Shown: piece after piece, positions 1 to 3,000 of the stretch
Position numbering within the stretch: position 1 is the stretch's first letter
Layout of the letters: each line of letters opens with the position of its first letter
Assembly (NCBI GenBank): GCA_037444485.1
Contig: JBBIMI010000026.1
Coordinates: forward strand, 1 to 10,267
Source: Candidatus Micrarchaeota archaeon
GTDB taxonomy: Archaea; Micrarchaeota; Micrarchaeia; Norongarragalinales; Norongarragalinaceae
Reading direction: 5' to 3'
DNA: 10,267 bases
Program-made: the position numbers

Positions 1-3000
1 CACGTGGTCGCGCAGCTTCGCGCGGACGTGAGTCCTGCTCGTGCTGCCATGCTGTTGAAGGGCGCGAGCGCGTACGACTTGTTTCGTTTCGAGCCAAAGT
101 TTCGCCTGCGCTAGGCGCGGCCACTTCTGGGGCCGCGCGTACTTTCACCACAGTGTCGGCGACGCCGACTTGGAAACAGTCGCGCGTTACGTGCGCGAGG
201 ATAACGACGCCCGCCAGCGAACGCTGGCAGCATACTAGAAATCCTACGCCTTTAGGCGTAAGTTATTAAAATTAAAACTAGTTTTTAAAATTAGGGAATG
301 CGTTTTTGTTTTTGCGTTACGTTTTTTAAGTACTAGGTTTTTCTTAATAATATTCTTTTTCGCAGTGGGGTGTTTAATGTTGAACGTGAGCAAGGCCGGG
401 ATAAGTAGTTTGGTTGCAGGACTCGTTTTGCTTTTATTGCTTTGGTTTTTTGTTTTCGCGCCACCGCATTACGGCAGCGTTTCCGCTGGCTTGCTTGCAG
501 CGATCGTCACAGCTGTCTTTGGTGGATTGATTATTATCGGAGTGCTGTTGCTGGTAATAGGATTAATAATCTTGATTATATAATCTTAATGCGAATCTTA
601 ATGCGTTTGGTTGAGAAATCCGCGAGTTCAGTCGCGGGACGAATCAACTCTAATGTTCGTTATGCTCGTAATTGTTTCGCTTCGCTTGTTTGCCGATTTT
701 TGCAGGTGCAGCGTTTCGCGCGCTGATAGTGGCGCCAGCCGCCAAGCCTGGCAACATGCAACATGCCGGAATCCAGCGCCTTTAAGCGTAGGTTGTTTAA
801 TTTGAGTGTTGAGTTCAGGCCGGCAATCAATTAACTCGTCTTGAGTACTTCGTTCTGCGTGCTCAGCGCGGTGTACGCTGTTTGGTTTGCTCCAGTCCAG
901 TAAACAACCCACGCGTTTTCAGGCAAGCCGCTTGCGAAAGCAAGCAAAGCGTTTTCGTCGATTCCAGGGCAGTACGCGGTTGCTTCGCTGGAGTTTAATT
1001 CTTTTACGAGTTCTTTTACGAGAAAAGCGCAGCCGAACGCGTCGTTCGCGCCAGTGATTTGTGTGAGTGCCGGCAGTTTTCCAGAGTTTATCAGCGCTTC
1101 TTCGCGCAGCGCGATGCTTGTGCGTTGGTTGCAGTCGTTTACAAGCATTTCAGGCCTGTACTTGAATTTTAAGACGTCACTGTAATCTCTTTTTTCTACT
1201 GTCGGGCACCGCGAATGCTGGTTTTTAGCGATTATCACGGTGGCGGTCCACGCTTCTCCAACTTGAGTCAAGCTTGAAACGCGCGCTTCGCTTGGATTGA
1301 CGCCTTGTTCCGCCAAGTCTTTCAGCAATAGTTTTTGGACTTCGTCCCTAGTCAAAGCAACTTTCTGTTGTTGAGGAATAAGGGTGAAAGCGATTAGGAA
1401 CGCGCCTAGTATTATTGTGAGGATTACTGCACTCCGATACCCGTTCATTTCAAGAATACTCCCGCCTTTTCTTCCTTCAATACTTTTTCGCTTCACTAGT
1501 TTTTAATACATTTGGCTGAGAAATCCGTTGCGTTCAGGCAACAGACGAACTACGGATGAATCAAATTGTTTCGCTTCGCTTGTTTGCCGGTTTTTTGTAG
1601 GTGCCTGCGGGGCGGTTGGCTTCGTTCGCGTGGGCGGCGCGGGCCTCGACGCCTCGTTTCGCGCGCGTTACGTGCGCGAGGATAACGACGCCCGCCAGCG
1701 AACGCTGGCAGCATACTAGAAATCCTAAGCCTTTAGGCGTAGGTTATTTAATTCAAGGCCTTTATGCCGCAGAAGGAAACTTAGGCATGCGTCGTAAAGT
1801 TGCGTGCAGTATTTCTTATACTTCAACAAAGCAGGTTGAGCGTATTTTTGTGAGTAAGTTATTGAATTTCTTAGAGGTTGAAAACAGAATAAAACCCGCA
1901 CATGACGGGGTTAGCGTCTGCGGTTTCAGAAATATACAGAAATTATTTGAAGCCGATGTTTTTGCCTTGAGGCCGTTTGATAGAGTCCTGCTATCAAATG
2001 GATTTAGAGAATTATCCTGGTAAAAGCAAAAATAAGATAATCTCCTTTTTATCAGAACACCCAGATATGCCCGCCTTCGAAATTGCTTCAGCGTTATCAC
2101 TTTCTTATAAGAATACTTCAAAGCAACTTAGAGAATTGGCTAATGAAAATAAAGTAACGGCAAACAGACGATCGAGAGTATCTCTTCCGTATTCCTGGAA
2201 AGTTAATAGTCAGTTATAAGTTGTTGTCCTTTCTTCACTTTTCTTGGTTGTTTGGACGGTTGACTGGCTGGCTTTAAAGCCAAAGCTTTTAACATCTTAT
2301 TCATTTTCTCTTCCTTCTTGCGGGAAATCCAGTGGAATGCCTCGTCCTTCGTGTCTTTCGTTATCAGGATTACGGTTTTTCCCGCCTTTACGCGTCCAGC
2401 GCGGCCGCGGCGTTGAATTAATCTAACCTCGCTAGGAACTGCTTCATAGAAAATAACTAAGTCGACCGCCCTGATGTCTATGCCCTCTTCCGCCACTTGC
2501 GTTGCGACGAGCGTGTTGAAGTCTTTGTTTCGAAAAGCATCGAGCAGTTCGCCCTGCTGTTTTTGAGTCATTCCGCCTTCGCCGCTCCTGCCGACTAACT
2601 TGCGGGCTTTCACGAAACGCGTTTCTTCAAGCGCTTTAAGAACCTTGTCGACGGAATCGCGGTAGTGGGCGAAGACGATTACCGACTTGCCTTCCGCGGC
2701 TGCCGCGCTGACCAACTCACGCATTTTCGCCATTTTGGGGTGCTCGATTTTTTTCGCGATCAACTCGCCGACTTTCTTTAAAACCTGCGCGTAGCGGGAG
2801 TCTTTCAAAATCGCTTGCACGGCCTTCGTCTTTTTCTCGCGTTCGCCTATTCCCTTCCAAAAGCTCTCGAGCGCGCCGATGCCTTCGGTCTCGAGCAAGT
2901 CGATGGCGTGCATCAAGTTCATCGCGCGCGCGAGCAGGCTCAACGCCCAAAACCTGCTTGCACCTGAGGAAGCGAGCAGCCGAGCGCGCAATGCAAGCAA

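Follow-up and report, generated by a model that had tools for sequence, protein, structure and literature searches.

The window analysed here, a stretch of 10,267 nucleotides, is contig C26 of G000, an archaeal MAG of 961,727 bp in 58 contigs that is 95.07% complete. Its start holds the gene g00813, a short ORF and a dispersed repeat that occurs three times within 1.8 kb (Table 1). The protein encoded by g00813 is 31–36% identical to that of the gene following ABCE1 in the relatives L015, L016 and L017, and 34–41% identical to that of a gene present in all five genomes of genus g8. The short ORF occupies the position that is taken in G023 by the 3' end of ABCE1.

Table 1. Genes and repeat copies at the start of the window.
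Feature	Coordinates	Strand	Details
Right ("tail") part of the long repeat variant, intergenic	1..275	+	Contig starts inside; profile match 180-270
72-aa ORF, two hydrophobic stretches (hydropathy)	365..583	+	No Pfam family
Full repeat copy, ~205 nt	598..805	+	Profile hit 599-800, E 5.9e-55
g00813, signal-anchored, ~205 aa	831..1448	-	ORF 831-1496, ATG at 1448; no Pfam family
Third repeat copy, upstream of g00813	1497..1756	+	Profile hit 1504-1751, E 3.5e-43; direct repeats D1-D6

The tail part at the start of the contig has copies, 91–97% identical, at the starts or ends of C17, C27, C11, C51, C52, C16, C25 and C10, and its positions 181-275 are repeated at 1662-1756. In the source run the contig depth for this repeat was 207–408, against about 26 for unique DNA. 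It is traversed by an open frame of 88 aa (3-269), which has no Pfam match and no likeness to ABCE1. Copies of the full repeat, 69–85% identical, lie on C11, C6, C35, C7, C3 and C9, and the repeat profile gave 48 hits genome-wide in G000. The full copy had no match in Rfam, and its fold was no better than those of shuffled sequences (z 0.22). The first-pass annotation had described an IS-like repeat at this contig end. The repeat is confirmed, but it comes without a transposase and is therefore not IS-like.

ABCE1 in the genome and at its conserved place

ABCE1 had been reported as absent from G000, both among the called proteins and in six frames, and our searches agree. The six-frame search with the Fer4_RLI profile (PF04068), which covers the N-terminal domain of ABCE1 and its two [4Fe-4S] clusters, gave no match in G000 and was positive in four of four archaeal control genomes, and no C..C..C...C motif occurs among the called ORFs of G000. 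The NCBIfam model of full-length ABCE1 (NF009945, cut-off 469 bits) had no match in this genome at E ≤ 1e-30. When 15 ABCE1 ORFs of the order were compared with G000 by tblastn, they only retrieved the nucleotide-binding domains (NBDs) of three ABC ATPases (best E 1.6e-13), and the ABCE1 of G024 used as query also found a transporter NBD as its best match (E 7.7e-10). The ABC_tran profile exceeded its cut-off only in the frames of the same three ATPases, of 248, 348 and 503 aa, all with a single NBD, and this search revealed no twin-NBD frame; ABCE1 has two NBDs in one chain and no membrane domain. A fourth, weak match was a T2SSE ATPase. The three ABC ATPases had all been placed beside permeases; their number is correct, but clear membrane partners were found for two of them, whereas the third, which is LolD-like, has an NFACT (Rqc2-type) gene and one for a membrane-anchored CARDB protein as neighbours. 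G000 also encodes aRF1 and Pelota.

Relatives show where the gene would be expected. The conserved place of ABCE1 is divergent from Pelota and convergent with a g00813-like gene. Pelota is its most conserved neighbour: the divergent pair occurs in four of the five g2 genomes and in G023, and in a hand comparison of listed coordinates the two genes lie at most 2.5 kb apart in no fewer than 24 genomes from other families. The g00813-like gene is found 3' of ABCE1 in G017, G023 and G024. In G000 these two neighbours are on separate contigs and each faces a contig start: Pelota begins at a distance of 241 nt on C24, and the end of g00813 is 830 nt away on C26. Both contig ends lie inside one and the same dispersed repeat family, that of C24 carrying its "head" and that of C26 its "tail". 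A relaxed tblastn with 15 ABCE1 proteins against window positions 1-900, C24 1-260, C18 7600-7900 and C11 3500-4400 returned chance-level matches (best E 0.034), and no ABCE1 remnant was recognised by tblastn in window positions 1-900 at E ≤ 50 (best 0.16). The earlier statement that the places flanking ABCE1 in relatives hold none in G000 is thus sound on the glutaredoxin side, which lies in the interior of C11, but on the side of g00813 it covers only the 830 nt to the contig start. The clean deletion between the same two neighbours, proposed for a sister genus, is borne out in g8, where glutaredoxin directly adjoins the g00813-like gene in G031 and G028 with no ABCE1 between them.

In the source run unique DNA had a depth of about 26x and the contigs all break at repeats; no read or contig of that run extends across window position 1. 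In a metagenome relative (L123, Pelota 83% identical), the contig starts 49 nt upstream of Pelota.

Since Pelota and g00813 face contig ends in the same repeat, a gap and a true deletion are about equally likely in G000. We give slightly better than even chances to ABCE1 being present but unassembled or unbinned, between the starts of C24 and C26 and flanked by two long-variant repeats. The gene order of relatives argues for such a gap, with ABCE1 paired with Pelota and followed by g00813-like genes, and so does the density of repeats at the locus; an ABCE1 gene between two repeat copies would give a contig of about 2.3 kb, which a binner could drop. However, none of the 58 contigs carries a fragment of ABCE1, though the bin includes contigs as short as 1.3 kb. 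A single repeat copy could also join the head on C24 directly to the tail on C26, as both parts occur together in an interior copy on C19, separated by about 110 nt, and the bin contains eight head ends and eight tail ends with no orphan. The EF-2 tree, from which G035 (wrong ORF) and G012, G022 and G025 (EF-2 fragmentary or missing) were left out, places G000 beside the ABCE1-bearing g2 with support 93/93, and SufBD is lacking in G000, g2, g6 and g7 but not in g8; both observations favour a gap. Yet a clade of G000 with the ABCE1-less g8 was not rejected (AU p 0.077), and losses of ABCE1 are frequent in this order. True loss of the gene in G000 is a serious possibility, if not quite an even one.

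Distribution of ABCE1 in the order and the class

The earlier count for the order of G000 was reproduced, with ABCE1 in 52 of 68 genomes and none in the other 16, namely G000, all members of g8 (5/5), g26 (4/4) and g31 (2/2), and the single genomes G008, G060, G065 and G038. In G038 an N-terminal fragment of ABCE1 at a contig end indicates an assembly break, not a loss. Fer4_RLI was found in 45 of the 68 genomes.

The picture extends to the class, which NCBI labels mark as Micrarchaeota. NF009945 matched 220 of the 401 sampled genomes at E ≤ 1e-30, leaving 181 without ABCE1, and it matched 94 of the 186 genomes that are at least 90% complete; most of these genomes are MAGs, and related genomes make the counts non-independent. 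No match was found in the families f14 (0/78), f18 (0/64), f13 (0/9) and f30 (0/4). In the order of G070, also labelled Micrarchaeota, none of 248 species-level genomes exceeded the ABCE1 cut-off, although several consist of a single contig and 86 are at least 90% complete; the best hit, to one NBD, reached 96.8 bits. For Candidatus Micrarchaeum sp. A_DKE, whose chromosome is complete, the best score was 61.9 bits against the cut-off of 469.

It is scarcely conceivable that incomplete MAGs or searches of low sensitivity account for all these absences. MAGs do predominate, and fragments of ABCE1 are cut by contig ends in G099 as in G038. But the single-contig genomes and the complete chromosome are negative as well, and the same pipeline detected the controls: eRF1_3, which marks aRF1 and Pelota, in 396 of the 401 genomes of the class (74/78 in f14 and 63/64 in f18), GTP_EFTU in 161 of 161 genomes, and even the diverged type B ABCE1 of relatives at E 1e-110 to 1e-152. 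A search with PF00005 revealed no twin-NBD frame in five high-quality ABCE1-less genomes (G029, G053, G062, G070 and G075), which hold only single-NBD frames of 220–351 aa and encode both aRF1 and Pelota. A diverged analogue without ABC motifs may weaken the case at the level of clades.

We conclude that ABCE1 was likely lost repeatedly in the class, in a whole order, in two further families and in several genera of the order of the window, G000 being either a loss or a gap. The boldest reading of the first-pass annotation, a lineage that does without ABCE1 while keeping aRF1 and Pelota, therefore stands for these clades and reaches further than it had proposed; for G000 itself, where Pelota and g00813 both face contig ends in one repeat family, it is weaker than claimed. 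A tie between the loss of ABCE1 and that of the SUF system was considered and rejected, because SufBD is kept in the ABCE1-less g8 (4/5), g26 (4/4), g31 (2/2), G070 and G075, and it is absent from many ABCE1-bearing genera. Type B ABCE1 is strongly diverged, which may mark relaxed constraint.

Possible routes of ribosome splitting without ABCE1

According to passages of two papers (PMC6124641, PMC5711452), ABCE1 is essential wherever it has been tested, and every archaeal and eukaryotic genome encodes it. Our literature search found no paper that reports its absence in DPANN or Micrarchaeota; the supplementary tables of genome papers, which could list it, lay outside that search. From the distribution described above, it is very likely that ABCE1 is dispensable in nature and was lost at least five times in the class, including an entire order, with ribosomes split by a route undescribed in archaea, which would be factor-free or driven by initiation factors, or by a new factor. 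Natural ABCE1-less lineages imply that ribosomes of the archaeal type can be recycled in another way. They offer a comparative test bed with many independent losses, and they warn that ABCE1 is unsafe as a universal archaeal marker. One ABCE1-less organism with a complete chromosome on record is grown in co-culture, so that biochemistry and ribosome profiling would be possible; ribosomes in 3'-UTRs are a recognised sign of ABCE1 depletion.

Lineages truly without ABCE1 must split terminated and stalled ribosomes by an ABCE1-independent route. G000 encodes all the partners of ABCE1 in the known system, namely aRF1, Pelota and aEF1-alpha, and the ABCE1 of relatives, divergent beside Pelota, is in its type A form close to the solved Pyrococcus protein (3j15_B, 3bk7_A; 630 bits). 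It differs in that the gene itself was not found in G000 and is absent from whole clades. Bacteria split ribosomes without ABCE1 by means of RRF and EF-G, but RRF (PF01765) was detected neither in G000 nor in five ABCE1-less genomes, the control being positive in 10 bacteria, and the GTP_EFTU counts examined gave no second copy of EF-2. HflX (TIGR03156, cut-off 216.75 bits) reached at best 48.1 bits in five genomes including G000. No ABCF, i.e., no soluble twin-NBD protein, was found in G000 or in the five ABCE1-less genomes named above. No spare ABC ATPase is present either; the three of G075 are SufC or have ABC-2 permeases as neighbours.

As the likeliest solution we tentatively propose, at rather less than even confidence, a two-part route that would be the archaeal counterpart of the energy-free recycling of eukaryotes. 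Slow intrinsic splitting by aRF1 or Pelota, brought in by aEF1-alpha, would be followed by capture of the subunits by the anti-association and initiation factors aIF6, aIF1 and aIF1A. Such a route would be tolerable in slow-growing symbionts. The eukaryotic process, in which eIF3, eIF1 and eIF1A recycle ribosomes in vitro at low Mg2+, is likewise independent of ABCE1 and reliant on initiation and anti-association factors (PMC5711452). The analogy is limited by the absence of eIF3 from archaea and by the restriction of the eukaryotic route, as known, to low Mg2+ in vitro. Another related system is yeast Dom34:Hbs1, a homologue of Pelota with its GTPase. It reportedly works without Rli1, more slowly. 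Its promotion of subunit dissociation is the subject of Shoemaker, Eyler and Green (2010). In archaea aEF1-alpha takes the place of Hbs1.

Splitting in the ABCE1-less lineages might instead have been taken over by a protein so far unrecognised, without detectable likeness to ABCE1, RRF or HflX; we regard this as unlikely but by no means negligible. Ribosome splitting is thought to be essential, according to passages of the same two papers (PMC6124641, PMC5711452), repeated losses suggest a standing alternative, and many ORFs near aRF1 and Pelota belong to no family. Yet no conserved NTPase is shared beside aRF1 or Pelota in five ABCE1-less genomes, G070 and G075 have no twin-NBD frame, and both candidates that emerged were explained away. 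One was an extra EF-Tu-type GTPase, the fifth of its kind, which 50 of 59 high-quality genomes in the ABCE1-less order encode, compared with 4 of 34 in f22; it is CysN-like and lies directly after CysD. The other, a twin-NBD ORF of 853 aa that occurs in A_DKE and G508, is an ECF ATPase fused to a phosphoribosyltransferase beside CbiQ/EcfT. Use of ABCE1 protein supplied by a host cell is very improbable. These archaea depend on hosts and have reduced genomes, and the passage of host material into such symbionts has been discussed, but they would need to import ribosome factors in sufficient quantity for function, and the losses span lineages from varied habitats.

Another difference from yeast Dom34:Hbs1 concerns Pelota itself: in the ABCE1-less order its C-terminal domain shows drift. 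The ratio of C-terminal to N-terminal identity is 0.75 there, against 0.93–0.97, and two motifs are lost; by hand count, 48 of 142 genomes of this order have one or no eRF1_3 hit, compared with 9 of 148 elsewhere. The altered domain may be part of a rewiring of recycling. The canonical C-terminus is kept in g8, g26, g31 and G000, and the drift is therefore not a general mark of ABCE1 loss.

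Distribution of ABCE1 in the class

We searched 401 sampled genomes of the class for ABCE1, the Fe-S twin-ABC ATPase that splits ribosomes, using the full-length model NF009945 (cut-off of 469 bits). At E ≤ 1e-30 it matched 220 of them, and 94 of the 186 with a completeness of 90% or more. No match came from four families: f14 (0/78), f18 (0/64), f13 (0/9, although f23, its sister family in the same order, retains an ABCE1 fragment) and f30 (0/4). The same pipeline recovered the eRF1_3 domain of aRF1 and Pelota, taken as a control, in 396/401 genomes (f14 74/78, f18 63/64, f13 9/9, f30 4/4), and the control GTP_EFTU in 161/161. 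The order holding f14, f18 and f38, labelled Micrarchaeota, was searched entirely. None of its 248 genomes passed the cut-off, including 86 that are at least 90% complete and eight that are single contigs (G105, G139, G151, G160, G219, G229, G295, G327), and the top score was 96.8 bits, for a single nucleotide-binding domain (NBD) in a 268-aa frame. For Candidatus Micrarchaeum sp. strain A_DKE, whose chromosome is complete (NZ_CP060530.1), the best score was 61.9 bits. The ABC frames of five high-quality ABCE1-less genomes all had a single NBD (220-351 aa); in G075 (97% complete, 3 contigs) one of the three frames was SufC, located in a suf cluster, and the other two adjoined ABC-2 permeases. 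The tallies include two unpublished genomes (G136, G297), and the conclusions are the same without both.

The absence of ABCE1 is well supported at the level of lineages. Going by taxonomy codes, ABCE1 was lost independently at least five times in well-sampled groups (the 248-genome order, f13, f30 and the genera g8 and g26), at least once more in f10 (g29, g31, g33), and possibly once in f4. The natural ABCE1-less archaeal clade proposed by the first-pass annotation is therefore wider than initially thought, as it extends to the 248-genome order, f13, f30 and the A_DKE chromosome. Such lineages are apparently unreported as far as we found: a full-text literature search, covering passages without supplements, returned no report of an ABCE1-less archaeon.

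In the order of the genome under study (G000), ABCE1 was present in 52 of 68 genomes, whether searched with the G024 protein or with NF009945 (E ≤ 1e-30), which reproduces the earlier counts. The Fe-S domain Fer4_RLI (PF04068) was matched in 45 of the 68. The 16 genomes without ABCE1 are G000, all those of g8 (5/5, including a 9-contig genome of 93% completeness), g26 (4/4) and g31 (2/2), and G008, G060, G065 and G038. This list was correct as such, but G038 should not count as an absence: its ABCE1 frame, of which an N-terminal fragment is left, runs off a contig end, which makes it an assembly break, not a loss. The clean deletion announced for a sister genus is seen in g8. There, G031 encodes a 272-aa gene, glutaredoxin and a homologue of g00813 (the 3' neighbour of ABCE1 in relatives), the last two being 353 nt apart, and the same adjacency occurs in G028. 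The order in G017 is glutaredoxin, ABCE1, NUDIX and g00813-like, in the same orientations.

The ABCE1 of this order fall into two types. Type A is of the canonical kind, scoring 630 bits with the Pyrococcus protein and about 500 with human ABCE1; type B, at 338 and 266 bits respectively, has diverged strongly. Both Walker A motifs and both Walker B glutamates are conserved in the latter, together with eight N-terminal cysteines; most of its rows also retain both signature motifs. Type B proteins (among loci L005-L049) are 31-39% identical to type A and about 40 aa shorter. The types never co-occur in one genome, yet both are found inside single families, e.g., f1 and f9, which suggests relaxed constraint or replacement.

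The expected ABCE1 locus in G000

G000, a MAG of an archaeon, comprises 58 contigs with a total of 961,727 bp (completeness 95.07%, contamination 0.2%), and the window is its entire contig C26. The reported lack of ABCE1 in its assembly was borne out by all searches. Fer4_RLI had no match in six frames (it was positive in four archaeal control genomes), NF009945 found nothing at E ≤ 1e-30, and tblastn with 15 ABCE1 ORFs of relatives matched only the NBDs of three ABC ATPases (best E 1.6e-13). These three were also the matches to ABC_tran (PF00005) that passed the cut-off, and their frames measure 248, 348 and 503 aa. A fourth, weaker match is a type II/IV secretion ATPase. The count of three ABC ATPases was thus right, but not all adjoin permease genes, since the LolD-like one lies elsewhere (see table). 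In the Lys/Glu-rich one, repeats (EKKEKEEKKEREEREEKK...) make up some 170 aa at the C-terminus.

Pelota is the most conserved neighbour of ABCE1. The two genes form a divergent pair, 370-660 nt apart, in g2 (G013, G014, G015, G016) and G023. A hand comparison of coordinates shows them sharing a contig, no more than 2.5 kb apart, in at least 24 genomes from other families. By coordinates (L128, L130, L017), the divergent pair recurs across the class, in many of its families. G023 has Pelota (minus), ABCE1 (plus) and g00813-like (minus), in this order. In G000, Pelota starts 241 nt from the start of contig C24 and g00813 ends 830 nt from that of C26, oriented so as to flank the absent ABCE1, and both contig starts lie inside one repeat family. 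The first-pass annotation relied on g00813 and glutaredoxin as flanks: ABCE1 is indeed not beside g00813, but only 830 nt separate this gene from the contig start, and Pelota had not been used. ABCE1 is not beside PPDK, the other g2-type flank, because a RelA/SpoT-like gene lies 121 nt from the PPDK 3' end. To our knowledge, such an alarmone synthetase/hydrolase homologue is unusual for an archaeon.

Features of G000 at and around the candidate loci
Feature	Location	Strand	Remarks
Dispersed repeat, right part ("tail" of long variant)	window 1-275		
Hydrophobic ORF	window 365-583		72 aa
Full repeat copy	window 598-805		
g00813	window 831-1448	minus	no Pfam family matched; single N-terminal hydrophobic anchor
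Third repeat copy	window 1497-1756		
RuBisCO large-subunit gene	window 4441-5751	plus	both Pfam domains, E 1.6e-83; presumably form III
Repeat "head"	C24:1-206		
Pelota	C24:242-1279		
PPDK	C18:7840-10299		
RelA/SpoT-like gene	C18:6079-7719	minus	547 aa; RelA_SpoT and HD_4 domains
ABC ATPase 1			DrrA-like; adjoins ABC-2 permease
ABC ATPase 2	C9:10595-12103 (L003:562-2070)	minus	NBD with long Lys/Glu-rich tail; adjoins five-helix membrane ORF
ABC ATPase 3			LolD-like NBD; adjoins membrane-anchored CARDB protein and NFACT gene
NFACT gene (Rqc2/NEMF-type)	C1:77544-78707 (L001:2122-3285)	plus	next to ABC ATPase 3

If a single repeat copy joins C24 to C26, the result is the G023 arrangement minus ABCE1, a deletion that possibly arose by recombination between flanking repeats. 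Alternatively, ABCE1 may be flanked by two repeat copies on a contig of some 2.3 kb that escaped binning. No ABCE1 was found in window 1-1448, and no remnants were detectable at four candidate places in G000. In the source run, where unique DNA has a depth of about 26x, contigs break at repeats and none extends beyond window position 1. The absence in G000 does not decide for or against a loss, since the assembly breaks at the expected locus. In an EF-2 tree (22 rows, LG+C20 by PMSF), G000 joins the ABCE1-bearing g2 (support 93/93), and this pair joins the ABCE1-less g8 (84/81); the alternative clade of G000 and g8 was not rejected (AU p 0.077). G000 lacks SufBD as do g2, g6 and g7, unlike g8. 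Weighing the locus, repeat, EF-2 and SufBD evidence, we give a true loss in G000 slightly less than an even chance. Hence, the earlier claim stands for the missing gene, with its loss from this genome and an assembly gap about equally likely.

SufB/SufD were found neither in G000 nor in 32 of the 68 genomes (g2 0/5, g7 0/3, f3 0/6, g28 0/3), although no fewer than six radical-SAM enzymes are encoded in G000. SufB/SufD-less relatives of G000 retain the Fe-S protein ABCE1. The loss of ABCE1 is not tied to that of the SUF machinery for Fe-S clusters.

Ribosome splitting in ABCE1-less lineages

The FeS domain of ABCE1 contacts the C-terminal domain of Pelota and eRF1. This domain of Pelota has drifted in the ABCE1-less 248-genome order. 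One or zero eRF1_3 matches were found in 48/142 genomes of f14 and f18, against 9/148 in f12, f15, f16, f22 and f25 (hand count of related, not independent, genomes), and Pelota was present with a strong N-domain in four of five genomes having at most one match. In an alignment of 30 Pelota, the ratio of C- to N-domain identity, measured against 16 ABCE1-bearing references, was 0.75 in six proteins of that order and 0.93-0.97 in other groups. These six lack the C-terminal motifs AALLRF(K/R) and LDExLRK. The drift does not help to decide on G000, because G000, g8, g26 and g31 keep the canonical motifs. From the structures, a review describes the FeS domain as binding and stabilising Pelota and eRF1 (PMC5711452).

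As previously claimed, aRF1 (C25) and Pelota are kept in G000, both as intact three-domain proteins. ABCE1-less lineages keep aRF1, Pelota, aEF1-alpha, aEF-2, aIF2-gamma and aIF5B. NFACT (Rqc2-type) acts after splitting, on large subunits with peptidyl-tRNA. Since G000 has NFACT, ribosome splitting still seems to occur. We found nothing that replaces ABCE1: RRF was missing from G000 and from five ABCE1-less genomes, no HflX scored above cut-off, neighbour genes of aRF1 or Pelota included no shared NTPase, and no ABCF-like or other twin-NBD protein was found beyond a fused ECF ATPase, which occurs in some genomes and adjoins CbiQ/EcfT. A fifth EF-Tu-type GTPase is present in 50/59 high-quality genomes of the 248-genome order (elsewhere f22 4/34, f12 6/14, f16 3/8; hand counts). 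It was rejected as a splitter: its gene comes directly after CysD and its matches to CysN and EF-1-alpha are about equally good, which makes it the sulfate adenylyltransferase GTPase. The CysD/CysN-like pair is nearly universal in this order (L250-L253: G070, G075, G151, G139), and the GTPase scores slightly higher with EF-1-alpha models than with CysN models, in both cases below cut-offs.

The likeliest route, which we put forward tentatively, would be a basal ABCE1-independent splitting by aRF1 or Pelota together with aEF1-alpha, after which aIF6, aIF1 and aIF1A would capture the subunits. It is supported by analogy: Dom34:Hbs1 reportedly promotes subunit dissociation. The analogy extends to energy-free recycling by eIF3/eIF1/eIF1A at low Mg2+, described in the review (PMC5711452), and to weak subunit association, reported for an archaeal lysate in another article (PMC6124641). 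Splitting by an undescribed dedicated factor seems unlikely, and a supply of ABCE1 by a host highly improbable.

The dispersed repeat and the rest of the window

The repeat at the start of C26 had been called IS-like, which did not hold, as we found no transposase. It matches no Rfam family, and folds no better than shuffles. It is a dispersed, intergenic element of about 200-250 nt (e.g., C11:896-1103, C6:26038-26247, C3:55352-55545), with 48 matches to its profile in G000. The conserved, hairpin-like head reads TTGGYTGAGAAATCC... and the conserved tail ...ATCCTACGCCTTTAGGCGTAAGTT. An interior copy in C19 carries head and tail about 110 nt apart, and contig ends stop in the head (8) or in the tail (8), i.e., the longer variant breaks the assembly. 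Beyond g00813, the window encodes a DEAD-box helicase, the RuBisCO large-subunit homologue and membrane proteins.
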